Assembly (NCBI GenBank): GCA_028713675.1
Contig: JAQTNV010000010.1
Span: forward strand, 12,369 to 76,368
DNA length: 64,000 nucleotides
Direction of reading: 5' to 3'
Source: a bacterium
GTDB taxonomy: Bacteria; Desulfobacterota; JAPLJL01
The notes under the pieces are model-generated. The model had not been told where the DNA came from. It did no database searches and saw only the letters and a list, made by a program, of their open reading frames with translations. Shown here in pieces: positions 1-37,980 of this stretch (its first letter is position 1; each line of letters opens with the position of its first letter). Made by a program: the position numbers and the translations under genes.

Positions 1-51
1 CGGGGGAATCCAGTCTTTCCGCTCTGGATTCCCGCTTTCGCGGGAATGACA
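1..51. repeat. GAAA-loop hairpin repeat (GTCATTCC-YGC-GAAAGC-RGG-GAATCCAG; translates as WIPAFAGMT), extended form
   Basis: The sequence gggggaatccagtctttccgctctggattcccgctttcgcgggaatgac is nearly identical to 34921-34971. Confidence 0.7.
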
Positions 52-75
52 GCTCAAAAAAATCTAAAGCCGTTG

Positions 76-1344
76 CTATTTTCTTCCGGCTTTCTTTTTC
101 CGGACCGGTTTTCGGGAGGCGGCCTTTTTCGCGGCCTTCCCGGTTTTCTTGACCTTGTCCTTAACCTGTTTTCTGGCCTGGACCGGCTTCGGCTTGGCTT
201 CGTCCCGGCCGAGGACATAGACGATATTCGACTGGAGGCAGAAGCCGCTGGTCGCGTGCACCAGCCCCCGGCGGATATCCTTTTTAATCTGGTATTCCCC
301 CGCCTGCCCGGTGAGCTGGCGGGCCGCCTCGACCATCCGGAGCAGGCCGGCCACGAAAATGGGGTTCCCGCAGAGCGCCCCTCCCGAGGCGTTCACGGGA
401 TAAGCTCCGTCCAGGTTCGCGATTCCTTTCTCCACCAGCTTCCGCCCTTCCCCGGCCTCGGCCAGCCCCAGTCCCTCGCAAATCATCAGTTCGGAAAAGG
501 AGAACGGCTCGTAGACCTCGGCGAAATCGGTTTCCTTCCGCGGGTTCCTGATCCCGGCCTGGGCGTAAGCCATCCGGGCCGCCCGGGCCAGCGATTCCGG
601 CCGGGCCAGGTCCCGGTGCCCCAGGTAATAAAGGTCATGGTTGTAGCCGACCCCCTCGATCCAGACCGGATTGGGGGTGATTTTCCGGGCCAGATCGCCG
701 TTGGCCAGGATCAGGGCGCAGGCCGCTTCCGAACGCGGGGAAGCGTCGGCCAGTTTGATCGGGGAAGCCAGTACCGGCGATTTCAAAACCTCCGCTTCGC
801 TGATCGGGATCCGGACCTGGGTGTTGGGGTTTCTCACCCCGTTGGCCCGGTTTTTCACCACCACCTTGGCCGCCGGCCGCTCGTCCAGGTTATACCGGGA
901 AAGGTAACTGTTCGCCTGGAGGGCGAAGGCCGAGACCATCTCCACCCCCAGGGGGCGGAGCAGGAAGGGATCGGTCATCATCCAGGAATAAAACTGGGGA
1001 GGGGTGTCCACGCGTCCGTGAGCCACGATCAGCGCCGTCTTATGGTGGCCGGTGAGGAGCCGGAGGTAGGCGTAAAGGGCGGCATAGGCGCCGTCCTCCT
1101 CCACCTTGGATTCCTCCTTCATGAATCCCCCCATGGACTCGACCACGAAAACGTTGGAGATGCTGGCCCCGTCCATCGTGTCGCAGCTCGCGCTGATGAC
1201 CGTGTCGATGTCCCCGATGGAGAGCCCGCTTTTGTCCAGGGCCGCTTGCACGGTCCGGCCGATCATTTCGGTTTTGTGGATCCGTTCGTCCCGCTCCACG
1301 ATTGGGGATTGGGCCCAGCCGACAATCGCCGCTTTCCGTTCCAC
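76..1344 (-). CDS. Thiolase-like protein of the SCP-x / non-specific lipid-transfer type, with an unusual Lys/Ala/Pro-rich basic C-terminal tail
   Basis: The translation carries thiolase motifs (AAIVGWAQSPI near the N-terminus, NASGGALCGNPIFVAGL near the C-terminus). The likely start is a GTG at 1344, preceded by AGGAGG 6 nt upstream. The ORF track extends to 1530, but that stretch covers intergenic repeats. The C-terminal 40 aa read KPKPVQARKQVKDKVKKTGKAAKKAASRKPVRKKKAGRK. Confidence 0.75.
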   Translation of the reverse strand: MERKAAIVGWAQSPIVERDERIHKTEMIGRTVQAALDKSGLSIGDIDTVISASCDTMDGASISNVFVVESMGGFMKEESKVEEDGAYAALYAYLRLLTGHHKTALIVAHGRVDTPPQFYSWMMTDPFLLRPLGVEMVSAFALQANSYLSRYNLDERPAAKVVVKNRANGVRNPNTQVRIPISEAEVLKSPVLASPIKLADASPRSEAACALILANGDLARKITPNPVWIEGVGYNHDLYYLGHRDLARPESLARAARMAYAQAGIRNPRKETDFAEVYEPFSFSELMICEGLGLAEAGEGRKLVEKGIANLDGAYPVNASGGALCGNPIFVAGLLRMVEAARQLTGQAGEYQIKKDIRRGLVHATSGFCLQSNIVYVLGRDEAKPKPVQARKQVKDKVKKTGKAAKKAASRKPVRKKKAGRK

Positions 1345-1613
1345 CTGCTTCCTCCTTCTGATAAAGCCTTGATATAAATGTTTGGAGTTGGGTGATAGGT
1401 GTTGGGTGCTGGGTAATAAAACTAAAATGCCACCCGAACTTATACCCCGAACTCTAAAAATTTCCTTCTCAGTTCCCTGCTCCGGGCCCTTTGCCTTCGG
1501 CTCCGACTGGGCAGGACGCCTGGATTCCAACCACCCAGCTACCCAACCACCGCGCAGCCAGGCTGCGGCTATCGTTTTGCCCTATGCCCTCTGCCCTATG
1601 CTCTATACTCTTT

Positions 1614-2762
1614 TTAGTACGTGCTGATGATATCCCGGGCGATGATCATGCGCTGGATCTCGCTCGCTCCTTCGCCGATCTCGCCGAGCTTGGCGTCGCG
1701 ATAGAGCCGCTCCACCTTGTATTCCTTCATATAGCCGTAGCCGCCGTGGATCTGGACCGCGTCCGAGGCGATCCGGGTACAGGTCTCGGAGGCGTAAAGC
1801 TTGGCCACCGAGGCCAGGGTGCTGTCGGGCGTGCCCTGGTCAAGCTTCCAGGCCGCCTCGTGAATAACCAGCCGGGCACCGTCCGTGGCCACCTTCATCT
1901 CGGCGATCTTGAAGTGGATCTCCTGGAAACTGGCGAGGGTCTTGCCGAAAGCCTGCCGCTCGGTCGCGTATTTGATCGACTCCTCCAGGCAGGCCTCCGC
2001 TATCCCCAGCGAAAACACCGCCATCCCGATCCGGGCCGGGACCAGGCACTGCATGCACTGGATGAAACCGCCGCCCTCGCTGCCGACCAGGTTGGCGGCC
2101 GGGATCTCGCAGTCCTCGAAAATGAGCTCGGAGGTGGGGCTCCCGCGGACCCCCAGCTTGTCCAGGGGCTTGCCCACGGAAAAGCCCTTGGTCCCCTTCT
2201 CCACCACGAAGCAGGAGATGCCCGAATAGCCCTTGCTGGGATCGGTCTTGGCGTAGATAATCGCGATGTCCGCGATCGGCCCGTTGGTAATGAACATCTT
2301 GGTGCCGTTCAAAACATACTTGTCGCCCTTCCGGATCGCCTTGGTCTTGAGGGACTGGACGTCAGACCCGGCATGGGGCTCAGTCATCGCCATGCACCCG
2401 AACTTGGTTCCCTTGATCAGATCGGGGAGATATTTTTTCTTCTGGGCGTCGGTGCCGAAAATCAGGATCGGGATCCCGGCCAAGCCGACGCTCGCCCCCG
2501 AGGAAAGGTAGGTGGCCGCGCAGGCCTTGGAGAGCTCCTCGCCGGCGACGGAGGTGGTCACGCAGCCCAGGTTGGTCCCGCCGAACTCCTTGGGCATCCC
2601 CATCCCCATGTAGCCGTACTTGCCCAGGGCCTTGATGTTATCGGTGCAGAAGATCATCTCCCGGTCGAGCTTCTCGGCCTTGGGCGCGATCTCCTTTTCG
2701 CAGAAATCCCGAAAACTTCTTTGAATCTCTATCTGTTCCGGAGTGTATGTATAGTCAAACAT
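1614..2762 (-). CDS. Acyl-CoA dehydrogenase
   Basis: 382 aa. ACAD family hallmarks are present: [19 protein letters not shown], a C-terminal QIHGGYGY, and [17 protein letters not shown]. Confidence 0.9.
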
Positions 2763-2789
2763 GTTTCCTCCCTTTTCTTTCCTGCCGTC

Positions 2790-3953
2790 CTAAGAGCCGA
2801 AGCTCATCAGGGTGCGGGCGATGATGGATTTCTGGATCTCGGAGGTTCCGCCGCCGATGGTCGCGATCCGGGAATCCCGGAAGCCCCGCTCCACCGGGTA
2901 CTCCTTGATGTAACCGTAGCCGCCGTGGATCTGGATCGCGAGGTAAGCGGTCTTAATCGCCGCTTCCGAAACGAAGTACTTGCCGATGGCGGCCTGCTGC
3001 ATCGCCTCGAGCTCCCGGCCCTGGTCGATCATCCAGGCCGTCCGGTAGACCAGGTTCTTGCCCACCTCGTAGAATATCTTCAGGTCCACCAGCATGTGCT
3101 GGATGGCCTGGAAATCCGAAATCGGGCGCTTGAACTGGACCCGGGTCTTGGCGTACTTGGTGCACTTGTCCAGGGCCCCTTCCATCCCGCCCACCGCCGG
3201 GGCCAGGAGGCAGGAGCGCTCCCAGGCCAGGATGGTCCGGGCCACGTTCACGAAGCCCATGTCCAGCTCATCCAGAAGGTTCTCCTCCGGGACCTCGCAG
3301 TCCTCAAAGAAAAGCTCCGAGGTGGGGGAGGTCCGCTGGCCGAGCTTGTTCATGTGCTTGCCGGCGGAAAAACCCTTGGAATCGCTTTCCACGATGAAGG
3401 TCGAGACCCCGAACGTCTTTTTCTCCGGGGAAGTGACCGCGATGACAATGAACTGGTGCCCGTAGGGCCCGTTGGTAATAAAGGTCTTGGAGCCGTTCAG
3501 GATGTACTTGTTGCCCTTCTTGACCGCCCGGGTCTGGACATGGGTGGCGTCGCTCCCGGCGTTGGGCTCGGTCATCCCCATCCCGCCGATCCATTCGCCG
3601 GAGCAGATCTTGGGGAGGAATTTTTTCCGCTGTTCCTCGGTCCCGCGGCGCCAGATCGGCACCCCGCAAAGGATGGTGTGGGCTCCCCAGGTCATGGTCG
3701 TCCCCCCGTCCGCCCCGCCGCGGCCCAGGGCCACGCCGGCGACGCAGGTGGTCAGGGCGCCCAGCCCCTGCCCGCCGTACTGGGTCGGGAAGGGCATCCC
3801 CAGGATCCCCATCTGGCCCAGCTTCTTCCAAAGCGCCTGGTCGAACTCCTGCTTCTCGTCCCGCTCCAGAGCGGTCGGGAGCATCTCCTTCTCGGCAAAA
3901 GACCGGAGCTGCTCGTAAATCATTTTTTGTTCATCGGTCAAGGTAAATTCCAT
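2790..3953 (-). CDS. Acyl-CoA dehydrogenase (second paralog, in tandem with the first)
   Basis: 387 aa. ACAD motifs are present: [23 protein letters not shown], and TIGGGTSEIQK. Confidence 0.9.
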   Translation of the reverse strand: MEFTLTDEQKMIYEQLRSFAEKEMLPTALERDEKQEFDQALWKKLGQMGILGMPFPTQYGGQGLGALTTCVAGVALGRGGADGGTTMTWGAHTILCGVPIWRRGTEEQRKKFLPKICSGEWIGGMGMTEPNAGSDATHVQTRAVKKGNKYILNGSKTFITNGPYGHQFIVIAVTSPEKKTFGVSTFIVESDSKGFSAGKHMNKLGQRTSPTSELFFEDCEVPEENLLDELDMGFVNVARTILAWERSCLLAPAVGGMEGALDKCTKYAKTRVQFKRPISDFQAIQHMLVDLKIFYEVGKNLVYRTAWMIDQGRELEAMQQAAIGKYFVSEAAIKTAYLAIQIHGGYGYIKEYPVERGFRDSRIATIGGGTSEIQKSIIARTLMSFGS

Positions 3954-4235
3954 TGGGTCCCTCCCGGGTAAAAGTTAAGCGATTTATTTATCTATATATA
4001 ATGGAGATCTTATATACCGCCGCCTCCGATACTGTCAAGGACAAAAACATAGTATTGGCTATTATCAGTCAAAATCATAATTTATCTGTCGAAGGGCTCA
4101 ATTCAAAACCAAAAAATGACAGGTATTAAATTAATCATCCATTTAAATATCTTTGGCTCTTGTCTTAACCTTTTCTCGCTTTTTAACTTTTCTCGCCATT
4201 TCCTATAATTGACCAAATTCCTCTCGGAATTCATA

Positions 4236-6659
4236 ATGAATCAGATGCCCAAAAAATTACACCGGCTCGCGTTTTTCCTGATTTTCCTCCTGTCCTGTTC
4301 CCGGGACGGGGTCTTGACCTTGACCACTCCCGTCCCCCTGAATGAATCCATCCCCGGGGATGAAATCCGTTTCGGAAAAATCATTTCGGATTCGGAACTG
4401 GTCCCCGGTCCCGGGGCCACCGGCTGGTTCGGTGATTTCAAGCTTTACAATTCCCGGGTCGGTTTCATCCTCCAGGGCAACCTGACCCCCCCCGACCGGC
4501 GCCTGCTTCCCGGAACCATTATCGACGCGGGCTGGGCCGAACCGGGGGCGCTTCCCTCCGGAGATCTTCTCTTCGGCCTTACCCCCTGGCTCGAGGATTC
4601 ACCGGCGCGCGTGGGAAAAATCGAATTCCAGGATGGGGCGGGTCAGGGCCGGGCCACGGTTACCGGAAGGCTGGAACCGCAAAATCTTGATTACCAGGCC
4701 ACTTATGCCCTTTACCCCGGCGATGACCCGCGGGGCCGGGGCCTTCTAATCAAAACCACCATCTCGAACCCCGGCTCTTCCCCCCAGACCGTCAATCCGG
4801 GAGACTGGATTTCGTTCGGGGGAAAACTCGGCCTGCAGGTTCTGGATTTTCCCGGCGGGCACAAACTTCTGGCCGCGATCGGGCCGCGAATATCCTATCT
4901 TTATGTACCTACCGGGCTGGACATCAGCTCCCTGGAAATGACCCCGGGCGGGGCCGGGATCCATTTCCCGGAAACAACCCTGGCCCCCGGGGAATCCTGG
5001 ACCGGCACCCGCTGGCTTCTGATCAGCCGCCATGGGCTTCTGGAAGCGAATCCCATCCTTCCCAACCTCCTCGGTTTCTCCCCGGGAACCCTGCGGGTCC
5101 TGATCCCGAACGTGCAGGCGCAGGAAGATCTTTCCGTGAAAATATTCAGCCCCCCGGATGTTCTGAATGGCATCTGGGCTCCCGACCAGGAGGGAAATCT
5201 TTCGGCCCAGGTTCCGGCCGGTTCCTACCGGGTTAAAATCGAAAGCCCGGGCCTGGAGGATTATTATTTCCCGTCTCCTGTTACCGTCTCCGCCGGCGCC
5301 GAAAAATCGATCACGGTCACGCTCCCGGAGCCTTCCCGGGCGCGGTTCCAGATCTGGGAGGAAAACAACGGCGGCTATGCCACCGGCCCTTCCCCCGCGA
5401 AATTATGTTTCCAGAACCTGCGCCGGCCGGAAATCGTCGTGCGCGCCGTCACCGCGACCGGTTCGGGCGAAACCCTTCTGCCGCCGGGGATTTACGAGGT
5501 TTCCGCGAGCCGGGGGACGGAATACTCCCTGAAGCGGTTCCGATTTGGGCTCCAGCCGGGGGAAACCTTTGCCTTTCACGCTGCCCTCAGGAAGGTTCTG
5601 AATAACGATGGCTACTACTCCTTCGACCCCCGCCAGCGCACCGGCCGCTCCGCCCAGGGCAATCTGGGCCGCGAGGACTGGCTGAAAGACAACCTGGCGG
5701 AGGGCCTTTCCCTCTTGACCCCGGTTGATATCAACGCCGTCACCCAGATCTCTTCCTCCGATTTCCTTCCGGGTTATTCCGCTTCGGCCTCTTCCCTGAC
5801 CGGCCTGGAGATCCTCCCGGAAACCGGGCCTCCGTTTCTGCTCTTCCCCGCCGTTTTCGACCGTCTCTCCGGCTGGGGCGGGGCTCCCCTGGCGGACGAT
5901 CCGGAAACCATCTGGGAGATTTACCCGGCTTACTCCCGGCCCCGTCTCCTGGGGGCCACTCCCGAGTCCCTGGCATACCTGGTTCCTTCCTCCGATCCCG
6001 TCACCGCGCCGGTCCGGTTGGAATTCCCTCTCGATTTCGTCGAGATTTCCGATGCCGCGCCTGACCTCAACCGCTGGTTCGCCCTGCTCAATTCAGGATA
6101 CCTGGTCACCGCCGTCGGCGGATCCGGAGCTGGCAGTGTCGAAGAAGGGATCGGATTCCCCCGGACATTGATCCCCCGGGAAACCGGCTCATCCGATCCG
6201 GAAACCGATCTGGTGAACGCGATCAGGACCCGGAAGGCCCTGGTCTCGGCCGGGCCGCGCCTCCGGATGCGGGCGGATTATTACGGCTTCGATTCCGCCG
6301 CCTTTATTTCCGACACCAGCGGCGATATCGATCTTGAGATCGAGCTGGAAAGCCCGGTCTGGACCCCGGTTTCCGAGCTGATCATCTTCGGCAACGGGCA
6401 GCCCCTGCAAACCATCCCCGTGGATTTTTCCGCCGCTGTCAGCTTGGGAGGCCATCGTTTCTCCCAGCATTACTACCTCAACCTGCCGCTCGCAAAGGAC
6501 ACCTGGTTTGTCGCCCTGGTCCGGGGACAGGATTCGCTCGCGCCCGTTTACCCCGGTCATCCTTTCGCTTTCACCAACCCGATTTGGGTGGACGCTGACG
6601 GGGTGGACCGGGACGGCGACGGGCGTCTTTTCGACGCCCTGAACTCTCCTCTCCCATAG
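4236..6659 (+). CDS. Large hypothetical lipoprotein (about 808 aa) containing carboxypeptidase-regulatory-like beta-sandwich segments
   Basis: Signal peptide with lipobox (MNQMPKKLHRLAFFLIFLLSCS). No recognisable catalytic motif. The ORF track starts at a TTG at 4209. An ATG at 4236 or 4245 is more plausible as the start. Confidence 0.6.
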   Translation: MNQMPKKLHRLAFFLIFLLSCSRDGVLTLTTPVPLNESIPGDEIRFGKIISDSELVPGPGATGWFGDFKLYNSRVGFILQGNLTPPDRRLLPGTIIDAGWAEPGALPSGDLLFGLTPWLEDSPARVGKIEFQDGAGQGRATVTGRLEPQNLDYQATYALYPGDDPRGRGLLIKTTISNPGSSPQTVNPGDWISFGGKLGLQVLDFPGGHKLLAAIGPRISYLYVPTGLDISSLEMTPGGAGIHFPETTLAPGESWTGTRWLLISRHGLLEANPILPNLLGFSPGTLRVLIPNVQAQEDLSVKIFSPPDVLNGIWAPDQEGNLSAQVPAGSYRVKIESPGLEDYYFPSPVTVSAGAEKSITVTLPEPSRARFQIWEENNGGYATGPSPAKLCFQNLRRPEIVVRAVTATGSGETLLPPGIYEVSASRGTEYSLKRFRFGLQPGETFAFHAALRKVLNNDGYYSFDPRQRTGRSAQGNLGREDWLKDNLAEGLSLLTPVDINAVTQISSSDFLPGYSASASSLTGLEILPETGPPFLLFPAVFDRLSGWGGAPLADDPETIWEIYPAYSRPRLLGATPESLAYLVPSSDPVTAPVRLEFPLDFVEISDAAPDLNRWFALLNSGYLVTAVGGSGAGSVEEGIGFPRTLIPRETGSSDPETDLVNAIRTRKALVSAGPRLRMRADYYGFDSAAFISDTSGDIDLEIELESPVWTPVSELIIFGNGQPLQTIPVDFSAAVSLGGHRFSQHYYLNLPLAKDTWFVALVRGQDSLAPVYPGHPFAFTNPIWVDADGVDRDGDGRLFDALNSPLP

Positions 6660-6700
6660 ATCATTCATTCCTCATTTTTGTCATCCCTGTTTCTTTTTTT

Positions 6701-6727
6701 GTCATCCCTGCGAAAGCAGGGATCCAG
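6701..6727. repeat. GAAA-loop hairpin repeat (variant gtcatccctgcgaaagcagggatccag)
   Basis: Preceded by a direct tttgtcatccctg duplication and followed by a G-rich hairpin cluster. Confidence 0.65.
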
Positions 6728-6734
6728 AACAATT

Positions 6735-6865
6735 TTTTCAAGATTCCCGCATCCCTCCCCTCCGGCCTGTAGGCCCTACGGGCTGGAAGCGGGGCAGTAG
6801 GCCCTGCCGGGCCGGAGGCCACATCCTCCCCCTCCCCGCCTTTGACGGAGCAAGCTAAGGGGGAG
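6735..6865. repeat. G/C-rich CCCTCC/GGGAGG nested hairpin cluster; similar clusters lie at 17366-17475, 24345-24455 and 46530-46590
   Basis: The motifs ccctcccctcc ... gggggaggg recur in four intergenic regions. Two of them adjoin GAATGAC-ended elements. Confidence 0.55.
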
Positions 6866-6969
6866 GGAGTAATTAATGCGTTTCTTGCCTCTCTCGCTCT
6901 CTCGCTCTCTCGCTCGTCTCGCCTTTCTATTTGCATCGGTACGATGGACTCTGATATTAGTTGATAATC

Positions 6970-8205
6970 ATGTCCTCATCCGATTACCCCGTTGTGATCG
7001 TCGGGGCCGGCCCGGCCGGCTCGGCCGCCGCCCTCACCCTGGCCCGGAAGGGCCTCCGTCCCCTGCTGGCGGAGCGCTTCACCTTCCCCCGCGAGAAGGT
7101 CTGCGGAGACGGGCTTACATTCCGCTCGCTTTCCATTCTGAAAGAGCTGAATCTTTATGACCGGATTTCCTCCTGTCCCTCCGCCCTTCCGGTTAAAGAA
7201 GCCCGGGCGGTCACGGCAGAGAAAACTGTCTTCGCCGGTCCGATCCCCACTCTCCCGGACGGGTCGGTCGGTTTTATCTCCATCCCCCGGCGCGAGCTCG
7301 ATCAGATTCTCGCCCGGGCCGCGTCCGAGGCCGGAGCGGAGCTTGCGGAAAATTTCTCAGTCTCGGCCGTTCGAAGAAACGGCGGGACCATGGAAGTGAC
7401 CGGAAATCATAAAGGCCGGGAGAAAACCATCAGAACCAACCTGGTCATCGGCGCGGACGGGGCCCAGTCTATCGTCTCCCGGCAGGCCGGGCTTTACCGC
7501 CTTCGGCCCCGTTTCTGCGAGGTGTCCATCAGAGCTTATTTCACCGATCTGGATGAACCGGTCAGATGGCTGGAGCTTTATTACGATAAAAGGGTCATCC
7601 CCGGCTTCGCCTGGCTCTTTCCCCTGGCGGGCGGCATCGCGAACATCGGGATCGGGATCCGGATGGACCATCTGAAAAACCGGTCCCTGAAAAACCTTTA
7701 CCGGGAATTCATCTCCGATTACCCGCCGCTGAAGAAAAGACTGAAAAAAGCAAAAATGCTCGATCATCCCCGGGGGACCCTGATCCCCGGCTACGGACAG
7801 TCGGGAAAAATATTTTCAGACGGCGTCCTGCTCGCGGGTGATGCCGCCTCCCTGTCCGACCCCCTGGTGGGCGAAGGAGTCGGCGAGGCCCTCTTAAGCG
7901 GGGTCGCGGCCGGGGAGACCGCGGCCCGGGCCGTTTCGGCCGGCGATTTTTCCGGGTCTTTCCTCAGGCAGTATCAAAAAGAAATCCGCCGGCGCCTGAA
8001 TCCAGACTTCCGGTTCGCCCCCCTTTTCCAGAACTGGCCCCAGATCCACAAGGCCGCGGCCGCCATGATGCTCCGCGCGGAAAGGGACCCGGATTTCGGC
8101 CGGATCATGATCGGCATGGCTTCCGGGGCCATTTCCAAACGCGAAATCGCCCGGTGGGATTTCCTGGCCCCGACGGTGATGGGATATTGGGGAAGAAAGA
8201 AATAG
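6970..8205 (+). CDS. FAD-dependent oxidoreductase of the geranylgeranyl reductase family
   Basis: N-terminal dinucleotide fold (YPVVIVGAGPAGSAAALTLARKGL), KVCGDGL, and a GDAASLSDPLVGEGVGEA motif typical of GGR / FixC-like flavoproteins. Confidence 0.75.
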   Translation: MSSSDYPVVIVGAGPAGSAAALTLARKGLRPLLAERFTFPREKVCGDGLTFRSLSILKELNLYDRISSCPSALPVKEARAVTAEKTVFAGPIPTLPDGSVGFISIPRRELDQILARAASEAGAELAENFSVSAVRRNGGTMEVTGNHKGREKTIRTNLVIGADGAQSIVSRQAGLYRLRPRFCEVSIRAYFTDLDEPVRWLELYYDKRVIPGFAWLFPLAGGIANIGIGIRMDHLKNRSLKNLYREFISDYPPLKKRLKKAKMLDHPRGTLIPGYGQSGKIFSDGVLLAGDAASLSDPLVGEGVGEALLSGVAAGETAARAVSAGDFSGSFLRQYQKEIRRRLNPDFRFAPLFQNWPQIHKAAAAMMLRAERDPDFGRIMIGMASGAISKREIARWDFLAPTVMGYWGRKK

Positions 8206-8342
8206 TCCGAGATCCTAAGTCGATCTCGTCATTGCGAGTGAGTTTTGCGAGCGAAGCAATCCCGGAAATTTAGATTGCTTCGTCATCCCGTTTTTGACGG
8301 GATTCCTCGCAATGACATTTTGTAACTTCCAATCAAAATTCT

Positions 8343-8465: not shown

Positions 8466-8490
8466 GCGCAGGCTGAAGCCTGCGGCTACC
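8466..8490 (-). repeat. REP palindrome (GGTAGCCGCAGGCTTCAGCCTGCGC family)
   Basis: The sequence gcgcaggctgaagcctgcggctacc has an 8-bp stem, a 2-nt loop and a terminal CTACC (GTAG on the other strand). Confidence 0.7.
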
Positions 8491-9765: not shown

Positions 9766-9918
9766 ACCGTAGGCGGTAGACGGCATACCGGGGAAAGCCA
9801 GAAGCCCTTTCTCGCGCCTTACGCCTTACCCCTCACGCCTTATGTGTGGTTTCGTTGGGCTTGAGAAAAGAAGCCCCTGCCGATTAAATTTTCTCATATA
9901 ATTCATTCGTTATCATTT

Positions 9919-9983
9919 GTCATTCCTGCGAAAGCAGGAATCCAGGAAAAATATCTGGATCCCGCATCAAGTGCGGGATGACG
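9919..9983. repeat. GAAA-loop hairpin repeat plus an adjacent inverted partner (ctggatcccgcatcaagtgcgggatgacg)
   Basis: The sequence gtcattcctgcgaaagcaggaatccag is followed by a second hairpin that ends in gatgacg. Confidence 0.65.
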
Positions 9984-17274: not shown

Positions 17275-17507
17275 GTTAATATGAGGAAATATAAGTAGTT
17301 AGAACCTATCGGATAACTTGCGGGAAAAGACAAATTGGGACTTGAACAGGAAAACCTCCGGAATGACCCCCTCTCCCCCACCCTCCCCCTTCCCGCCTCT
17401 GGCGGGACAAGCCGAGGGGGGCCTGCCCGAGCCGGCCGCTCGGGTCGGCCAGGGAGGGAAAGGGTGAGGGTGAAAATAATTATCTGAACAGTTATGATTA
17501 AAACGCC

Positions 17508-27559: not shown

Positions 27560-27587
27560 CTGGATTCCTGCTTCCGCAGGAATGACG
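27560..27587. repeat. GAAA-loop hairpin repeat family (ctggattcctgcttccgcaggaatgacg)
   Basis: Located in the nrdJ-gcvH intergenic region. Generates the spurious peptide FWIPASAGMT in shadow ORF 27363..27623. Confidence 0.65.
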
Positions 27588-30502: not shown

Positions 30503-30757
30503 AAGAAGGTGTTACATGCAGCAATTTAAGCCTTCGATATTACAGGAAAAAATGAAAAGCTCTAACATCATCAAACCCTTTGGAGTACATTAGCTTGCTG
30601 ATGCGATGCGTCCCGCCAGTGGCGGGAGGCACTCTAAAAATACTATTATGGATTGCAATAGTTTTCTGATACTCTGCAAAAGCAAGCTTTTGCGCTCCAT
30701 AAAGATATATCTGATAAGAATATTTGTAACACCCTCTAAAAACCAAAGGAGGAGATA

Positions 30758-32107
30758 ATGGAAAACCGATCAAATTCTCTCCCGACGAACCCCAAACGGA
30801 ATCTCCGGAAACTTCCCGGGTTATTCCTTTTGGCTGCTCTGTTTATCCTCGGGCCACTGATTCTGGCCTCCGTGGCGGAAAAGGTCTACATCGATATCGG
30901 AAGCCCGGGAGCCAAAAAGTTCCCGATCGCCATTCCCGCCCCGGCTCCGACCGCCGGCGCCCCCGCGGCCCTGGCGGGGAAGATCGCCTCGACCCTGAAA
31001 TTCGATCTCGAGCTTTCCGGCCTCTTCAAGATTCTTCCTCCCGAGTCCTACCTGAAACCGGGGCTCCCCTCGGGGGCCGAGGATTTCGCCTCCTGGCGCA
31101 CAATCGGGGCGGAGGGCCTGGTCCGGGTTAAATATGCCCAGAAGGACCAGAAGCTCTCCATTACCGCCGAGATCTACGATCCGGTCCAGGGCATTTCCCT
31201 CTCCGGAAAGGTTTTTACCGGCAGCCCCGAGAGCTGCGCGGCCCTCACCCACCAGCTCGCCAACGAGGTGGTGCGGGCCTTTACCGGCACCCCCGGCCTC
31301 TTCGGCAGCCGGATCGCCTATGAATCCAACCGGAGCGGGCGCAAGGAAATCTTCATTTCCGATCTCGATCAGACCCACGAGCTGCAGATCACCAGCAATC
31401 GCCGGCTGAATTTGAGCCCGGCCTGGTCCCCGGACGGCTCGCAGATCCTTTACACCTCCTATCTCAAACGCAACCCCGACCTGTACCGCTACGACCTCCG
31501 GTCCGGCAAATCGGAAAGCGTCGCCCACTTCCCGGGCCTGAACCTGGGGCCGGTCTTCTCCCCGTCGGGAAAAGAGCTCGCCCTGACCCTTTCCCGGGAT
31601 AACGACGCGGAAATCTACGTGCAGAACCTGGCCAGCAAGGAAATGACCCGCCTGACCAACAACCAGGTGATCGACGTGCAGCCCTCCTATTCCCCCGACG
31701 GGAAGAAAATCGCCTTTACCAGCTCCCGGGCGGGCTCGCCCCAGATTTACGTCATGGATTCCGACGGGAAAAACGCCGTCCGGCTGACCTTCCAGGGCTC
31801 CTACAACTGCTCCCCGGCCTGGTCCCCGCGGGGCGACCGGATCGCCTACACCCGCCAGGAAAATAACCGCTTCTCGCTCTTTACCATCAAACCCGACGGC
31901 ACGGAGGACACCCTCCTGGTGGGGGACGCGGGCAGCAACGAAGACCCGGCTTGGTCCCCGGATGGGCGCCTGATCGCTTTCTCCACGAACCGCACCGGCG
32001 ACTATGACATCTGGGTGGTGAATTTCGACGGCAGCACCCCCCGGGCGCTGATCACCCGGAAGGGATCGAACGAAACCGCGCCGGCGTGGTCCGCGGTCGC
32101 TCCCTGA
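30758..32107 (+). CDS. tolB: TolB periplasmic beta-propeller protein
   Basis: Signal peptide. Repeated PAWSPDG, PSYSPDGKKIAFTSSR and PAWSPRGDRIAYT blades. Confidence 0.9.
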   Translation: MENRSNSLPTNPKRNLRKLPGLFLLAALFILGPLILASVAEKVYIDIGSPGAKKFPIAIPAPAPTAGAPAALAGKIASTLKFDLELSGLFKILPPESYLKPGLPSGAEDFASWRTIGAEGLVRVKYAQKDQKLSITAEIYDPVQGISLSGKVFTGSPESCAALTHQLANEVVRAFTGTPGLFGSRIAYESNRSGRKEIFISDLDQTHELQITSNRRLNLSPAWSPDGSQILYTSYLKRNPDLYRYDLRSGKSESVAHFPGLNLGPVFSPSGKELALTLSRDNDAEIYVQNLASKEMTRLTNNQVIDVQPSYSPDGKKIAFTSSRAGSPQIYVMDSDGKNAVRLTFQGSYNCSPAWSPRGDRIAYTRQENNRFSLFTIKPDGTEDTLLVGDAGSNEDPAWSPDGRLIAFSTNRTGDYDIWVVNFDGSTPRALITRKGSNETAPAWSAVAP

Positions 32108-32206
32108 ACGGGTCCCGAAAATGATTGTCAATATATGTTAAGATGAAAAAGAGGAAGCATTATGACTGAAGAAAACCAGAAAGATAAAGTAAAAAAGGAG
32201 GGTGGG

Positions 32207-33109
32207 ATGAATTTGTTCCAAAAGAGAATGTTTGGATCTCTTTTAGTTACCCTGGGAGTCGCGGCGCTGGTAATCCTCTCCGCCTGCGCCAAGCCCCCGA
32301 TCAAGGAAATCGCCACCGCCGAAGCGGCCCTGGAAAAGGCGCGCACGGCCGAGGCCCCCACCTACGCCCCGGAAACTTTCAAGAGCGCCGAGGACATCCT
32401 CGCCCAGGCCAAGACCGAGATGCAGAAAAAGAAATACAAACCGGCCAAGAAAGACGCCATCAACGCCCGGCTCCTGGCCGAGCGGGCCCTGGATGAGGCC
32501 GTCAAGAACAAGGCCGCCCAGGAGGCCGTACAGCCCAAAGCCCCCGGTCTGACCGAGGAGGAAAAAGCCGCCGGCCCCACTGTCCAGCCGCAGGAAATCT
32601 CGGTGGCCGAGCTCCAGAAACAGCAGACCGGGACCGGCTCCCTGGATGAAGGAATGAAGATTTCGTCCCTGGAAGCTGTCCATTTCAATTTCGACGATTT
32701 CAGCCTCTCTGAAGAAGCCCGCCAGACCCTGGCCAAGAACGCGGAATGGTTGAAAAAATACAATGTCGTGATCCAGATCGAAGGCCACTGCGACGAGCGC
32801 GGCGCCAACGAATACAACCTCGCCCTGGGCGAGAAAAGGGCCAAGACCGCCCGCGATTACCTGGTGGCTCTCGGCATTGACGCTTCCCGGCTGACGATCA
32901 TCAGTTACGGGGAAGAAATCCCGGTCGACCCCGGCAGCAGCGAAGCCGCCTGGGCCAAGAACCGGCGGGCCGAATTCATTGTCACAAAAATGAACGACAA
33001 GCAGCCGGAGACCGGTGTCAAACAGCCGGAAACCGGCATCAAGCAGCCGGAGGCCGGGATTACACAGCCGGAAACCGGCATTAAGCAGCCGGAAACCGGC
33101 AGCAAGTAG
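32207..33109 (+). CDS. pal: Peptidoglycan-associated lipoprotein Pal (OmpA-like domain) with five C-terminal KQPETGI heptapeptide repeats
   Basis: Lipobox LVILSAC. OmpA-like core (NVVIQIEGHCDERGANEYNLALGEKRAKTARDYL). RBS aaggaggg before the ATG at 32207. Tandem 21-bp repeat at 32995-33100. Confidence 0.85.
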   Translation: MNLFQKRMFGSLLVTLGVAALVILSACAKPPIKEIATAEAALEKARTAEAPTYAPETFKSAEDILAQAKTEMQKKKYKPAKKDAINARLLAERALDEAVKNKAAQEAVQPKAPGLTEEEKAAGPTVQPQEISVAELQKQQTGTGSLDEGMKISSLEAVHFNFDDFSLSEEARQTLAKNAEWLKKYNVVIQIEGHCDERGANEYNLALGEKRAKTARDYLVALGIDASRLTIISYGEEIPVDPGSSEAAWAKNRRAEFIVTKMNDKQPETGVKQPETGIKQPEAGITQPETGIKQPETGSK

Positions 33110-33115
33110 AAAGAA

Positions 33116-33152
33116 ACCAGTTTCTAGTTTCGAGTTTCGGGTTTCGAGTTTG
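33116..33152 (+). repeat. Stop-codon-adjacent GTTTCGA-heptamer element (3' of pal)
   Basis: The sequence ccagtttctagtttcgagtttcgggtttcgagtttg begins 7 nt after the pal TAG. Confidence 0.65.
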
Positions 33153-33271
33153 AAATTCTCGGAATTTTTTACGGAATGTCATTTCTGCGAACATGTCCGA
33201 CGACCTGTCCTCCGAAGCCTTGGCGTAGGAGGGAGCCTTGGCGAAGTCGGAAGCAGGAATCCAGGGGTTTT

Positions 33272-34126
33272 ATGAAGATTTCTTTTCGCTTTCTTCTTTT
33301 CACTCTTTGCTCCCTGCTCCCTGCCCTTTGTCTATTCCCCGGCTGTCTGCTCCTGACCAGTAACGACGGCATCGTCATCTCCGCCCGGCTGGATACCCTC
33401 GAGTCCAAGGTCAACCGGCTGGACCAGGACCTGCCCCGGCTCAAGGCCCAGAGCGAAGCCAACCAGAAGGAGCTCGAGCGGCTCACCCGCCAGCAGGCCG
33501 ACCTGCTGAACCAGATCGAGCAGATCAAGCAGACCATCCTCTCCCTCGGGGGAAAATTCGAGGAAGGGGAATCCCTGTTTGCCCGGCTGAAAACCCTGGA
33601 AGGGGAAGTCCAGGAACAGGCCGCCCAGGTCAAGCTGCATGCCGACCGGGCCCGGGAGCAGAACGACCGCCTGGCCAAGTTGGAAGGGATCATTTCCCCG
33701 GGCGGGCAGGTAGACGCCCAGAAACTGACCCCGAAATGGGCCAACGAGGAAGCCGGCTACCGGGAAGCCTACTCGAATTATCAGGGGAAAAAATACGATC
33801 TGGCCCGGGCCAAGTTTGAAAAGCTCATCGAGCTTTACCCCGGAGGCCAGTTCTCCGAAAGCGCCCGTTATTGGATCGGGGAATGTTACTTCAACCTCAA
33901 GGATTACGAGCGGGCTCTACTGAGTTTCAACGAAGTGATCGAGAAGTATCCGAAAAGCGACAAGGTCCCCGGCGCTTATCTGAAACTGGGGCTTTCCTTC
34001 CTCGAGCTTGGCCAGCAGAAGGAAGCCCAGATGGCCTTCGAAACCCTGCTTTCCAAGTTTCCCAAATCCGACGCCGCCAAAACCGCCAAGGAAAAGCTGA
34101 AAAAAATGAGGAAGAAGGGAAAGTGA
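33272..34126 (+). CDS. cpoB: Tol-Pal system protein CpoB/YbgF (coiled coil plus TPR)
   Basis: Signal peptide MKISFRFLLFTLCSLLPALC, a long coiled-coil region, and a C-terminal TPR (YWIGECYFNLKDYERALLSFNEVIEKYPKSDKVPGAYLKLG). Confidence 0.8.
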   Translation: MKISFRFLLFTLCSLLPALCLFPGCLLLTSNDGIVISARLDTLESKVNRLDQDLPRLKAQSEANQKELERLTRQQADLLNQIEQIKQTILSLGGKFEEGESLFARLKTLEGEVQEQAAQVKLHADRAREQNDRLAKLEGIISPGGQVDAQKLTPKWANEEAGYREAYSNYQGKKYDLARAKFEKLIELYPGGQFSESARYWIGECYFNLKDYERALLSFNEVIEKYPKSDKVPGAYLKLGLSFLELGQQKEAQMAFETLLSKFPKSDAAKTAKEKLKKMRKKGK

Positions 34127-34138
34127 TCAACTGTTTAA

Positions 34139-34309
34139 GGTAGGTGGTAGGTAGCAGGTGGTAGGTGGTAGGTGGTAGGTGGTAGGTGGTAGGTGGTAGG
34201 TGATAGGTGGTAGGTAGTAGGTAGTAGGTAGTAGGTAGTAGGTAGTAGGTAGTAGGTAGTAGGTAGTAGGTAGTAGGTAGTAGGTAGTAGGTAGTAGGTA
34301 GTAGGTAGT
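34139..34309. repeat. Long tandem heptanucleotide array (GGTAGGT / AGTAGGT, about 24 units)
   Basis: About 170 bp of perfect 7-nt periodicity immediately after cpoB, bordering the AT-rich islet. Confidence 0.9.
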
Positions 34310-34356
34310 AGACCCCCGGAAACCGATTTAACTCTTTTTTAAAATTCCATTTAAAT

Positions 34357-34842
34357 TTAATGACCCAGTGAAAATCCTAATATTTTGCCATTAGTACGAT
34401 CTATAAATACAAAACCATTAAACGCACCTGGAATAGGAGGAAATACTTTTAATTGAAAATAAATTGCCCAATAATTCTTCCCTCCTAAATGCATTTCTTG
34501 AATATTTGGTGAAAGCCAAATCCTTGGATTTCTATATACTTCGTCGTTCCATCTAGTATTATTGTCATCTGCTTTTATTCCAACTGTTTCTTTACCCCAA
34601 GATGGATCGTTTGTCTTTTTTATCAAACCAGCTCTAGCAATTTTTATCGCTTCCGACAAAGTGATGTTCGTTGTTTTCCCGGAAGGATAAGAAAATTCTA
34701 TCGATTTTATAGGAGAAGGATTCTTCTCCGCCTTTGAAGCTTCAGGAGTATGACTGGGAGAGCAATTCAAACATACCAGGAAGGTACAAACAACCCATAG
34801 TGAACAAACAACTCGCATAGAGGTATTATAAATCATTTTCAA
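34357..34842 (-). CDS. Hypothetical small secreted protein encoded in an AT-rich islet
   Basis: The ORF lies entirely in a roughly 530-bp segment of markedly lower GC (visually about 35-40%) than its surroundings. N-terminal hydrophobic Cys-rich signal (VVCSLWVVCTFLVCLNCS). Confidence 0.5.
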   Translation of the reverse strand: MKMIYNTSMRVVCSLWVVCTFLVCLNCSPSHTPEASKAEKNPSPIKSIEFSYPSGKTTNITLSEAIKIARAGLIKKTNDPSWGKETVGIKADDNNTRWNDEVYRNPRIWLSPNIQEMHLGGKNYWAIYFQLKVFPPIPGAFNGFVFIDRTNGKILGFSLGH

Positions 34843-34920
34843 CTTGATAATTCCTCGCGGCTGCGGGGTTGCCTTATTCCGTCATTCCGGGCTTGACTAA
34901 GCCTGCCCCGGACCTGATCC

Positions 34921-34971
34921 GGGGGAATCCAGTATTTTTTCCGCCTGGATTCCTGCTTCCGCAGGAATGAC
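34921..34971. repeat. GAAA-loop hairpin repeat, extended form
   Basis: The sequence gggggaatccagtattttttccgcctggattcctgcttccgcaggaatgac flanks the AT-rich islet. Confidence 0.7.
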
Positions 34972-35043
34972 AACAGACAAAATAAAGGTTTAATAAATTA
35001 GATACCCCGCGGCTTTCCACGGGAAGATTAATTCGGATGTGGA

Positions 35044-36489
35044 CTATTTTCCCAGGCGGGATTTGAGGAGCTCGCCCACCCGCTTGGGGTTGGCCTTGCC
35101 TTTGCTTTTCTTCATTACCTGACCGGTTAGAAACTGAAGAAGTTTCTCCTCACCGGATTTGAAGCGTTCCACTTCCTTGGGGCTATCCTTGATTACTTCG
35201 TCAATGATTCCGATCAGGGCCGACTCGTCCGAAACCTGGGACAGGCCCTGCTCCTGAACGATTTTCTCCGGGTCCTGGCCGTTCTTATACGACTCCTCGA
35301 GCACCTTTTTTCCGACCAGCCCGGAAATTTTCCCCTCATCCACCATCTTGATGATCCGCGCCAGGTTTTGCGGGGTCATCTTGACCGGGCCTCCGCCCTC
35401 CGCCCAGTAAATTCTTAAAAATTCTCCGGTCACCCAGTTGCTCACCTTCTTGGGCTCCGGATGGATTTTGACGGTTTCGTCAAAAAAATCGGAGACGGGC
35501 TTGGCGGCCACCAGGACCTCGGCGTCATATCGGGTCAGGCCCAGGTCCCGGACGAAGCGGTCCGCTTTTTCCTGGGGAAGCTCAGGTATTTTCTTTTTCA
35601 GCTCTTCCACCCAGGAATTTTCCAGAACCAGGGGCAGAAGGTCGGGCTCGGGAAAATAGCGGTAGTCATGGGCCTCTTCCTTGCCCCGCATCGGCAGGGT
35701 GACCTCATTATCGGGATCCCAGAGCAGGGTTTCCTGAACCACCTTTTTCCCCTCCGAGACGAGCGCGATCTGCCTTTGGATCTCCTTGGCCAGGGCTTTC
35801 TCCACGTTTTTGAAGGAGTTCATGTTCTTGAGCTCGGTCTTGACCCCCAGGGCGGTTTCGCCGCGGCGGCGGACGGAAACGTTAGCGTCGCAGCGAAGGG
35901 ACCCCTCCTCCATTTTCCCGTCGCAAACCCCCAGGTAAACCAGGATCGCGGCCAGGCGGCGGAGATAATCCCCGGCCTCCTCCGGAGTCCGGAGATCCGG
36001 TTCCGAAACGATCTCCATCAGAGGCACCCCGGCACGGTTCAGGTCCACGAAGCTCGATCCGGAATCCGCGCCTTCCCCGTGCACGAGCTTCCCGGCATCC
36101 TCCTCCAGATGGACCCGGGTGATCCCGATCTTCCGGAGCCCGTTCCCGCCCGCGGGGATCTCGAGCGAGCCCCGGAGCGCCAGGGGTGACTCATACTGGG
36201 AGATCTGGTAGCCCTTGGGCAGGTCCGGGTAGAAATAATTCTTCCGGGCGAAGACCGAGCGGGGAGGGATTTCCTCGCAATGCAGGGCCAGGGAGGTCAT
36301 GATCGCGAATTCCACCACCTTCCGGTTGATTACCGGCAGGACCCCGGGCATCCCCAGGCAGACCGGGCAGGTATGGCTGTTCGGCTGGTCCCCGAACCGG
36401 GTCGAGCAGCCGCAGAAGATCTTGGACTGGGTCTGGAGCTGGGCGTGGACCTCGAGGCCGATTACTGATTCAAAAGCTTTATCATTCAT
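35044..36489 (-). CDS. gatB: Asp-tRNA(Asn)/Glu-tRNA(Gln) amidotransferase subunit B
   Basis: Motif [19 protein letters not shown]...[13 protein letters not shown]-terminal YqeY-like tail. Confidence 0.9.
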
Positions 36490-36645
36490 AGTTCAAAGTC
36501 CAAAGGTCAAAGGTCAAAGTTCGAAGGAAAGATATAAAACAGCATCAGCAAGCTGATGCGCTCCAAAAAAGAAAACCCTGAATTCCGGCTTCCTCCTGCG
36601 CCGAGGCTTCGGAGGACAAGTCCGCCGGAATGACGATATTTATTT

Positions 36646-36680
36646 TTTACTGCTTACTGCCTACTCCTTACTGTTTACTG
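36646..36680. repeat. Tandem heptamer array (TTACTGC / CTACTCC units)
   Basis: Sequence ttactgcttactgcctactccttactgtttactgg. Confidence 0.7.
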
Positions 36681-36716
36681 GGAGCGAAGCTCCCTGCTGC
36701 CTACTTCTTACTGACA

Positions 36717-36741
36717 GCGCAGCCTAAAGGCTGCGGCTACC
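36717..36741 (-). repeat. REP palindrome with compensatory stem changes
   Basis: The sequence gcgcagcctaaaggctgcggctacc has the same architecture and CTACC end as the other copies. The stem is GCAGCCT/AGGCTGC rather than CAGGCT/AGCCTG. Confidence 0.6.
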
Positions 36742-36763
36742 TTAGAATGACAAATAAATATAT

Positions 36764-36806
36764 TTCAATCGTCAATCGTAAATCGTCAATCGTCAATCGT
36801 CAATTT
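36764..36806. repeat. Tandem heptamer array (AATCGTC units); a second copy lies at 36891-36922
   Basis: The sequence caatcgtcaatcgtaaatcgtcaatcgtcaatcgtcaatt is repeated about 85 bp downstream. Confidence 0.7.
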
Positions 36807-36920
36807 GCGCCTTGCGCTCTGCTTTTCGCAAGGCTAAAGCCTTGCCCTACATTTGCCCTATGCCCTTTGCGATCACAAATCAGGTTTTCACTCGTCAATC
36901 GTAAATCGTCAATCGTCAAT

Positions 36921-37856
36921 TTATTTTATGACTCCTTTGAGGATGGGGGCGAGTGTCTTTTTCAGCCGAGCAGGGATGGCTTTCGGGTCGGTGACAATGG
37001 CGTCCTTCAAGGCCTGGCTGCAGACGCAATTCCTCGCTTCCGGCAAATGGGGGATCGCGCCCGCGATCATTTCCTTGGCCTTGCCGATGGTGGCCTTCAT
37101 TACCTTGATCACATCCTCGATCTCGACCTCGCCTTCCCGCTCGTTCCAGCAGTCGTAGTCGGTGACCATCGCCACCGTGGCGTAGCAGATCTCGGCCTCG
37201 CGGGCGAGGCGGGCTTCCGGGAGGTTGGTCATCCCGATCACCGAAACCCCCCACTGGCGGTAGATGTCGGACTCCGCCCGGGTGGAAAACTGCGGCCCCT
37301 CGATGCAGATGTAGGTCCCCTGCCGGTGCAGCCGGAAGCCCTTTTCCTCGCCGACCCGGGCCAGGATCCCGGCCATGACCGGGCAGACCGGGTGGGCCAG
37401 GGCCACGTGCGCGACGATCTCTCGGGAGAAAAAGGTGCGGGGCCGGGCGGCGGTCCGGTCGAAGAACTGGTCGGGCAGAACGATATCGCCGGGATGGATC
37501 TCCTCGCGCATGCTCCCCACCGCGCTGACCGAGAAGATGCGCTCGGTGCCGAGCAGCTTGAAGCCGAAGATGTTGGCGCGGAAATTGATATCCCCGGGCG
37601 GGATCCGGTGGCCGCGGCCGTGGCGGGCCAGGAAGGCCAGGCGCCGGCCGCCCATCCGGCCGATCACGAACGGGTCGGAGGGTTCCCCGAAGGGGGTCTT
37701 GACCCTGACCTCCCGGATGTCGGTAAGTCCGGGCATCTCGTAAAGCCCCACCCCCCCGATCACCCCGATGGTCCCGGCCTCAAAAATTTTATTGCTTTTT
37801 TTACCAACCGAAATGTGGGGTTTCTTTTTCTTGCGTTTCATTCGTTTCCCCTTCAT
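36921..37856 (-). CDS. mtnP: S-methyl-5'-thioadenosine phosphorylase (purine nucleoside phosphorylase family)
   Basis: TIGVIGGVGLYE near the N-terminus, plus PNP-family motifs. The basic N-terminal extension of the ORF (MKGKRMKRKKKK...) is probably not translated, so the start is uncertain. Confidence 0.8.
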   Translation of the reverse strand: MKGKRMKRKKKKPHISVGKKSNKIFEAGTIGVIGGVGLYEMPGLTDIREVRVKTPFGEPSDPFVIGRMGGRRLAFLARHGRGHRIPPGDINFRANIFGFKLLGTERIFSVSAVGSMREEIHPGDIVLPDQFFDRTAARPRTFFSREIVAHVALAHPVCPVMAGILARVGEEKGFRLHRQGTYICIEGPQFSTRAESDIYRQWGVSVIGMTNLPEARLAREAEICYATVAMVTDYDCWNEREGEVEIEDVIKVMKATIGKAKEMIAGAIPHLPEARNCVCSQALKDAIVTDPKAIPARLKKTLAPILKGVIK

Positions 37857-37909
37857 TTAATCGAGATTGCTTCGTCGCTTGCGCTTCTCGCAATGACAAT
37901 TCTTCCAGA

Positions 37910-37980
37910 CTGGATTCCCGCTTTCGCGGGAATGACGGAATTAGCATGGATACTCCCGCCTTGGGCGGTACGGGAATGAC
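37910..37980. repeat. GAAA-loop hairpin repeat (ctggattcccgctttcgcgggaatgacgg) followed by a second gggaatgac end
   Basis: Lies between mtnP and ndk. Generates the spurious peptide WIPAFAGMT at the C-terminus of shadow ORF 36630..37979. Confidence 0.65.

Follow-up and report, generated by a model that had tools for sequence, protein, structure and literature searches.

A dispersed hairpin repeat in a core chromosomal region

The 64,000-nucleotide (nt) stretch of bacterial DNA analysed here (contig JAQTNV010000010.1, positions 12,369 to 76,368; hereafter the window) is a core chromosomal region with a short hairpin repeat in its intergenic spaces. Gene calls based on GC content at third codon positions (GC3), together with Pfam matches, place in this region genes for acyl-CoA dehydrogenases, MutS2, Kdo/Lpt, class II ribonucleotide reductase, GcvH, Tol-Pal, GatB and NDK, and also for 2-oxoacid:ferredoxin oxidoreductase, succinate dehydrogenase/fumarate reductase (SDH/FRD) and hyp/[NiFe]-hydrogenase. 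Our subject is the repeat, a candidate member of the family known as the Ssn-related motif (SRM).

Six copies of GTCATTCCYGCGRAAGCRGGAATCCAG lie where the original prediction, made from the letters of the sequence, had placed them, against a chance expectation of 0. The consensus given at that time (GTCATTCCYGCGAAAGCRGGGAATCCAG, 28 nt) contains one surplus G and finds 0 matches at up to three mismatches. Its 27-nt form, GTCATTCCYGCGAAAGCRGGAATCCAG, finds six in the window at the same threshold (dinucleotide shuffles, 0.00), one in each of the six intervals first listed: 24-50 (−), 6701-6727 (+), 9919-9945 (+), 27560-27586 (−), 34945-34971 (−) and 37910-37936 (−). All six read GTC-AT(T/C)CC(C/T)GC-G(A/G)AA-GC(G/A)GG(A/G)AT-CCAG, the folds agree, and the loops are GAAA or GGAA. 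The GTC 5' of the palindrome and the C 3' of it are invariant in these six canonical copies and in the hairpin at 9955-9983, and the preceding base makes the tag CGTC at 27560, 37910 and 9955 and TGTC at 24, 6701, 9919 and 34945. The stems come in the three versions that had been described, TCCCGC/GCGGGA, TCCTGC/GCAGGA and CCCTGC/GCAGGG. A scan for hairpins that begin with GTCAT, combined with a reading of the flanks, adds about eight more divergent relatives near the canonical copies, and every element is intergenic by GC3-based gene calls and Pfam, as had been proposed. The copies and their nearest relatives, with the published SRM pattern and NTS consensus that are cited in the next section, are as follows.

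1-13 (+): inverted partner hairpin, of which the window edge leaves the 3' end, CGGGGGAATCCAG; left dimer half with 24-50, aligning with 34920-34932
24-51 (−): canonical copy TGTCATTCCCGCGAAAGCGGGAATCCAG; fits the published SRM pattern; DNA hairpin of −10.5 kcal/mol, z −4.25; sense, 25 nt 3' of the stop of a thiolase-like gene
6680-6689 (+): 5' half-copy GTCATCCCTG, 21 nt upstream of the full copy at 6701-6727
6701-6727 (+): copy with doubly compensated stem, GTCATCCCTGCGAAAGCAGGGATCCAG, 41 nt past the stop of an 816-amino-acid (aa) gene
9919-9945 (+): canonical copy, TGC/GCA stem, GAAA loop; left arm of an inverted dimer
9955-9983 (−): dimer partner CGTCATCCCGCACTTGATGCGGGATCCAG, 8-bp stem, 5-nt loop CTTGA; fits the published SRM pattern
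27560-27587 (−): canonical copy CGTCATTCCTGCGGAAGCAGGAATCCAG, 91 nt past the gcvH stop, beyond a terminator-like hairpin at 27644-27623
34881-34932 (+): long partner hairpin (CGTCATTCC...CCCCGGA-CCTGA-TCCGGGGGAATCCAG) with a small hairpin inserted; left arm of a dimer that folds at −26.1 kcal/mol, z −5.4
34945-34971 (−): canonical copy, TGC/GCA stem, GGAA loop, 72 nt past the gatB stop, beyond a terminator-like hairpin at 35024-35005
36582-36634 (−): long-loop relative CGTCATTCCGGC-N34-GCCGGAATTCAG; T, not C, after the palindrome; z only −1.5
37910-37937 (−): canonical copy CGTCATTCCCGCGAAAGCGGGAATCCAG, identical to the Neisseria NTS consensus at 28/28 positions
37947-37980 (−): degenerate relative GTCATTCCCGTACCGCCCAAGGCGGGAGTATCCA, from the fold and a reading of the sequence

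Three inverted dimers (1-50, 9919-9983 and 34881-34971) hold three of the six canonical copies, with tags outward and CCAG tails facing; at 9919-9983 a 9-nt spacer lies between the tails. The 51-nt extended form that had been recognised at 1-51 and 34921-34971 does align between the two places, and it is half an inverted dimer, made up of the tail of the inverted partner, a T-rich spacer of 10-12 nt and a canonical copy. Among all copies that we collected, partners with facing tails outnumber those with facing tags (93 vs 35). As to the strand of the copies relative to flanking genes, which the original prediction had proposed to check, all six canonical copies are sense and lie 25-153 nt 3' of a stop codon, and the dimer partners are antisense. 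No replication-strand bias is evident, as copies occur on both strands and GC skew is uniformly negative across the region.

Probable identity with CGTC-1 REPs and the Ssn-related motif

Repeats of family 1 of the CGTC-tagged repetitive extragenic palindromes (REPs), or CGTC-1, have a tag, CGTC or TGTC, that is left unpaired, and an 8-bp stem that opens with an A-T and then a T-A pair; the loop has 4 nt and the tail reads CCA. They prefer one type of inverted dimer, are sited downstream of open reading frames (ORFs) and have no associated transposase (Di Nocera et al., 2013, BMC Genomics; PMC3733652). The same study equated CGTC-1 with dRS3 of Neisseria and RPE-6 of Rickettsia. The window repeat agrees on each of these points: the tag, the stem, loop and tail, and an intergenic position downstream of ORFs, in inverted dimers and with no flanking transposase. 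It also agrees with the NTS consensus, CGTCATTCCCGCGMAVGCGGGAATCYRG in its oriented form (Chenal et al., 2025, Nat Commun; PMC11893778), at all 28 positions in the copy at 37910-37937 and at 27 of 28 in that at 24-51. The novelty implied when the repeat was called a 'second dispersed element' is thus not borne out, the family having been described in 2000, 2013 and 2025.

The degenerate SRM pattern HGTCWYN(0-2)YYVSBRHN(0-5)WNVSBRGN(0-2)RNCYNB (PMC11893778) matches three copies in the window, where 0.47 are expected. The copies outside it differ from those inside solely in compensated stem pairs, and SRM counts made with this pattern are therefore underestimates, because TGC/GCA stems are widespread and the pattern misses them.

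The protein that acts on this motif in Neisseria is SsnA, a 94-aa single-domain GIY-YIG protein (cd10448) that binds NTS only when this is ssDNA (single-stranded DNA) from the tagged strand, which it cuts a few nt upstream; it is inactive on double-stranded DNA, on the reverse strand and on RNA, and leaves the RNA version of the motif unbound (Chenal et al., 2025; PMC11893778). Binding depends most on the C right after the palindrome and cleavage on the three bases before it, the very positions that are invariant in the six canonical copies. Activity on tagged-strand ssDNA is known for the enzymes of N. meningitidis, N. elongata, N. wadsworthii and Wolbachia, and ssn genes are usually bracketed by the motif (PMC11893778). 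The suggestion of a protein-recognised hairpin was thus the right idea, the known protein for this sequence family being a GIY-YIG ssDNA nuclease (PMC11893778). Collectively, the data are consistent with a model, to which we assign a probability of about 0.8, in which the window repeat is a CGTC-1 REP (that is, dRS3/NTS, RPE-6 or SRM) and an ssDNA recognition site for an Ssn nuclease.

Covariation and distribution of the family

If the hairpin matters, then its stem should vary in ways that keep it paired, and copies should occur beyond this contig; the original prediction had named the absence of either as its refutation. Both were found. We scanned viral contigs with the inner 10 nt of the repeat left free and obtained at least 120 stretches; among the matches listed, 169 of 178 copies keep all three unconstrained inner pairs Watson-Crick, in versions as different as CGC/GCG, CAC/GTG, GGC/GCC, TGC/GCA, ATC/GAT, AGC/GCT and CGT/ACG. 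With GTCAT and ATCCAG as the only fixed letters, we assembled 76 distinct 27-mers, in which the 8-bp helix is paired in 96% of cells and six of its eight pairs have changed on both sides. These values were reached in 0 of 500 shuffles, and every slid register was far worse.

The exact TGC-variant 27-mer is present in at least 120 stretches of species-representative genomes from more than 15 phyla, with hosts among Dehalococcoidia, Nitrospirota, Thermodesulfobacteriota, Planctomycetota, Rickettsia, Xanthomonadales, Patescibacteria, Elusimicrobia, Omnitrophota and others. Of 406 family copies, 212 have C ahead of the GTC, 178 have T, 9 have A and 7 have G. We also saw the exact 27-mer in a metagenome-assembled genome (MAG) of Candidatus Bathyarchaeum (SOJY01000058.1, our locus L198) and in Patescibacteria MAGs (L175, L193); these archaeal- and CPR-binned copies (CPR, candidate phyla radiation) could reflect horizontal spread or binning contamination.

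GIY-YIG genes bracketed by the repeat in other genomes

Among the collected loci, which had been gathered by DNA pattern alone, matches seeded with YhbQ were confirmed as PF01541, the GIY-YIG domain. In five loci (L196, L100, L045, L001 and L226) such an ORF is bracketed by a pair of inverted copies whose tags point outward; in L147 the sequence ends after the 5' copy. Of the sequences put to Pfam, that of L196 was a full ORF of 96 aa and the other three were tblastn segments of 74-81 aa.

Locus L196, from a Thermodesulfobacteriota MAG (OZ245366.1), carries the TGC 27-mer of the window. Its 96-aa ORF (5306-5596) exactly occupies the space between the arms of a heterodimer whose left arm has a 4-nt loop and whose right arm has a 5-nt loop, a layout shared by the window dimer at 9919-9983. 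The surrounding tandem units of 113 nt bear dimers with no gene, and the spacer of these, TATTGGTTAACCAGTTGAATA, is identical to the two flanks next to the gene when these are joined, which fits a reading of gene-less dimers as deletion derivatives. A search of the PDB with the Ssn-like protein of L196 gave no match. Tandem arrays of SRM heterodimers with a period of 112-113 nt extend over 4673-6260 in L196 and 5221-6038 in L174 (OZ245366.1).

A proposed mechanism and the points against it

We propose that the hairpin, with its 8-bp stem and 4-nt loop, would form when the tagged strand becomes single-stranded, as during replication, during repair or in incoming DNA. It would be recognised by a small Ssn-family nuclease (cd10448) with GIY-YIG as its single domain, the gene for which would lie at another place in the genome; among the bases contacted would be the GTC that directly precedes the stem and the C that directly follows it, and the nuclease would then nick the strand a few nt upstream of the hairpin. 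As for their origin, the copies and inverted dimers most likely derive from an SRM-ssn-SRM cassette by loss of its gene and have built up in the intergenic DNA that follows genes. What was computed here is the identity in sequence with the family, the covariation of the hairpin, the spread across phyla and the SRM-bracketed GIY-YIG genes elsewhere; binding and cleavage of ssDNA by SsnA, and its effect on Neisseria transformation, come from the literature.

Several points weigh against this model. To our knowledge, the mechanism by which copy number increases has been demonstrated for no member of the family. No Ssn or GIY-YIG homologue was found in the 64-kb window by regular expression, by tblastn (queries: E. 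coli YhbQ, used only as a seed, and three GIY-YIG sequences derived from the loci) or by hidden Markov model (HMM) search with --max over all ORFs of at least 45 aa. An Ssn-like gene occurs in only 6 of 240 SRM-bearing loci, which is expected for a system of one gene and many sites but does not prove one. The three copies with TGC/GCA stems and the CCCTGC copy fall outside the published SRM pattern. Exchange of the palindrome for another that still formed the hairpin abolished the activity of N. meningitidis SsnA (PMC11893778), so cleavage of the stem variants in the window would need a co-adapted enzyme. Finally, not every genome with more than 200 SRMs encodes an SsnA homologue; 81% do (PMC11893778); from this figure and the motif density, we infer that the host organism probably encodes an active Ssn.

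The dimers themselves appear to be deletion derivatives. A more speculative version, which we think less likely than not, is that they are internal deletions, akin to miniature inverted-repeat transposable elements (MITEs), of a selfish SRM-ssn-SRM cassette, and that a GIY-YIG ssDNA nuclease of about 95 aa drives a copy-and-insert pathway unlike HUH/RAYT transposition (RAYT, REP-associated tyrosine transposase). Small leads to such a pathway would be the 5' half-copies that lie 18-24 nt upstream of full copies, the nested hairpins at 8273-8316 and the resemblance of the L196 dimers to deletion products. An analogy with insertion sequences (IS) was raised, not demonstrated, by Chenal et al. (2025; PMC11893778).

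Weighing other explanations

The sense orientation of the six canonical copies just downstream of genes, the stability of the hairpin and its GAAA/GGAA loops in the window would also suit a structured RNA in 3' untranslated regions that stabilises mRNA or acts as a GNRA-tetraloop motif, as the original prediction had suggested, and Di Nocera et al. (PMC3733652) suggest that many REPs are transcribed and act as RNA. We consider this quite improbable. The covariance search that had been proposed, run with Rfam 15 at the gathering score, returned 0 matches in the whole window. In the 406 family copies the loop is G-N-A-N (GAAA, GGAA, GCAG, GAAG, GTAG), with GCAG, GAAG and GTAG common, and hence not GNRA; mispairs of the G:T and A:C kinds occur in similar numbers (15 vs 10), so there is no wobble signature and neither strand behaves as an RNA strand. 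Terminator-like hairpins with T-runs stand on the gene side, between stop codon and repeat, at gcvH, gatB and ndk, and no copy of the repeat is itself among the terminator-like sites in the window. The dimer partners are antisense, and SsnA binds the motif as ssDNA, not as RNA (PMC11893778). A side effect on mRNA 3' ends could exist alongside an ssDNA role. Rather unlikely, too, is that the hairpins are relics, fossils of a past SRM-ssn invasion that lost its nuclease gene and are now neutral intergenic DNA. The window does lack an ssn gene, 19% of SRM-rich genomes are without an SsnA homologue (PMC11893778), CGTC families have been proposed as possibly going extinct (Di Nocera et al., 2013; PMC3733652), and degenerate, split or insertion-bearing copies are present (34881-34932, 36582-36634, 37947-37980 and the half-copy at 6680). 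In 6/6 canonical copies, however, the 8-bp stem is perfect, with its variants compensated, and the GTC and C are intact, which is unexpected for long-neutral DNA, and in a window that amounts to 1-2% of a genome the absence of a single-copy gene is uninformative.

The window also contains a RAYT-type gene, which raises the question of whether the repeats are REPIN-type elements mobilised by its product. The gene is real by its domain match, and REP/RAYT systems likewise use tagged hairpins and inverted dimers. It is flanked, however, by a different, GTAG-tagged repeat, GGTAGCCGCAGGCTTCAGCCTGCG, whereas the tag of the repeat under study is YGTC; no GTCAT hairpin lies within 15 kb of the gene, and Di Nocera et al. 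found no CGTC repeat beside any tyrosine transposase gene (PMC3733652). We rejected the RAYT as mobiliser of the GTCAT repeat on the ground that its own GTAG repeats flank it, and regard this explanation as extremely improbable. The features concerned are these.

53783-54253 (−): RAYT-type IS200-like Y1 transposase gene (Y1_Tnp, PF01797, E 8.7e-11), between hypC and hypF
54336-54359, 54417-54440, 54489-54512, 8467-8490 and 36718-36741: GTAG-tagged REPs, GGTAGCCGCAGGCTTCAGCCTGCG, five copies in the window

A further GTAG-tagged copy was read near 53719, and a second hairpin, GGTAGGCGCAACCTTTAGGTTGCGGAAT, is interleaved with the GTAG REPs.

Related hairpins, half-copies and other repeats

The GTCAT tag is common to the canonical repeat and to a group of nested palindromes at 8228-8316, and so links the two. 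These are hairpins of the type YGTCATTGCGAG...GAAGCAATC, one of them with a GTCATCCCG hairpin nested in its loop. A terminus GAATGAC/GTCATTC had been said to be shared with both these palindromes and a G-rich cluster at 17366; it is present in the palindromes and does not extend to the cluster, where the GTCATTCC at 17360-17367, tried as a family member, is a lone 8-mer with no partner arm, of which about three are expected by chance in the window. The hairpins of this second type, together with the one nested in 8273-8316, are listed below.

8228-8262 (+): tag-family hairpin CGTCATTGCGAG-N14-GAAGCAATC, from hairpin scan and fold
8273-8316 (−): inverted GTCATTGCGAG...GAAGCAATC hairpin with a nested hairpin in its loop, from hairpin scan and fold
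8282-8303 (+): nested hairpin CGTCATCCCGTTTTTGACGGGAT, in the loop of 8273-8316; T, not C, after the palindrome
37865-37897 (−): GTCATTGCGAG-N13-GAAGCAATC hairpin, yielding a ...LLAMT shadow peptide

The whole of 8224-8320 folds at −27.5 kcal/mol (z −7.5). The C after the stem is replaced by T in 8282-8303, as it is in 36582-36634.

Beyond the window, the second tag-sharing family, YGTCATTGCGAG-N(4-30)-GAAGCAATC, frequently contains a GCGAAGC mini-hairpin motif and is the source of the '...LLAMT' peptides. At least 120 viral contigs carry it, and in 173 of 181 copies the base ahead of GTC is T or C; an Ssn-like gene was present in 1 of its 120 loci (L321-L440).

For the SRM repeat itself, 21 of 404 copies, on unrelated contigs, are preceded on their own strand, at a distance of 18-24 nt, by a 5' half-copy (YGTCAT plus the 5' stem arm). 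Besides 6680/6701 in the window, such loci include L016, L023, L028, L061, L078, L088, L103, L147 and L196, and the sequence between half-copy and full copy varies from genome to genome. The half-copy may be a footprint of a propagation or cleavage-repair process. Long inverted repeats with C-rich and G-rich arms (CCCTCCCC...GGGGAGGG) and internal GC-rich hairpins adjoin the hairpin repeats at 6750-6840 and 17368-17470 and may be a third repeat class.

Shadow peptides and genomic setting

The hairpins do yield the spurious WIPAFAGMT ORFs against which the original prediction had warned, and its advice to mask them is sound. WIPAFAGMT is encoded four times, at 25-51 (+), 37911-37937 (+), and 6700-6726 and 9918-9944 (both minus strand); WIPASAGMT, one substitution off, is encoded at 27561-27587 and 34946-34972, and the strand opposite these peptides encodes VIPAKAGIQ. 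The ORF 6661..6936 is open on the minus strand only. A literature search for the peptide 'IPAFAGMT' gave no result. Masking before gene calling matters, as in many phyla the hairpins give rise to 'hypothetical proteins' that look conserved (WIPAFAGMT, WIPASAGMT, VIPAKAGIQ, ...LLAMT).

As to the host, the gene content (Tol-Pal, Kdo/Lpt, 2-oxoacid:ferredoxin oxidoreductase, fumarate reductase/SDH and [NiFe]-hydrogenase) points to a diderm anaerobe or microaerophile, and a multihaem cytochrome is encoded at 63221-63982. No tRNA was found in the window. The lineage is sparsely sampled, the best GatB relatives in the metagenome collection being at most 57% identical. A comparison with empty sites therefore gave nothing: the best relatives in the GatB metagenome scan (47-57% identical) are too distant for insertion or absence to be read, and the window proteins had no close relative among the 120 genome loci.

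Comparison with known systems

GTAG-type REP/REPIN-RAYT systems resemble the one proposed here in having a short tagged hairpin, inverted dimers, a cognate gene bracketed by the repeat and recognition of the hairpin as ssDNA. They differ in the tag (GTAG vs YGTC) and in the enzyme, an HUH Y1 transposase vs a GIY-YIG nuclease. In the window, the two kinds of system, GTAG-REP/RAYT and CGTC-REP, are found side by side in a single genome. IS200/IS605 elements, which have subterminal hairpins and MITE-like derivatives, likewise enclose a small gene between a left and a right hairpin that differ from each other, and the gene-less dimers of L196 resemble internal deletions; Ssn, by contrast, has no known strand-transfer activity, and neither a target-site rule nor excision has been demonstrated.

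Closer is the NTS/SRM system. The sequence is the same, the window copies keep the GTC tag that gives the motif its orientation and the C that follows the palindrome, the copies are intergenic and, by extrapolation, number hundreds per genome, and identical 27-mers bracket GIY-YIG genes in other genomes. The differences are that the window has no ssn gene, that four of its six canonical copies have stem variants outside the published pattern, and that the host belongs to an unsampled diderm lineage of 59% GC and is neither Neisseria nor an alphaproteobacterium; a role in transformation is known only for Neisseria. With the CGTC-1 REPs, finally, the window repeat shares tag, stem, loop, tail, preferred dimer type, a place downstream of genes and the lack of an adjacent transposase, and there is no structural difference between them. 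The 2013 survey of CGTC-1 covered 5 phyla, and we find the exact 27-mer in many more; the window adds one poorly sampled lineage to the SRM/Ssn host range.

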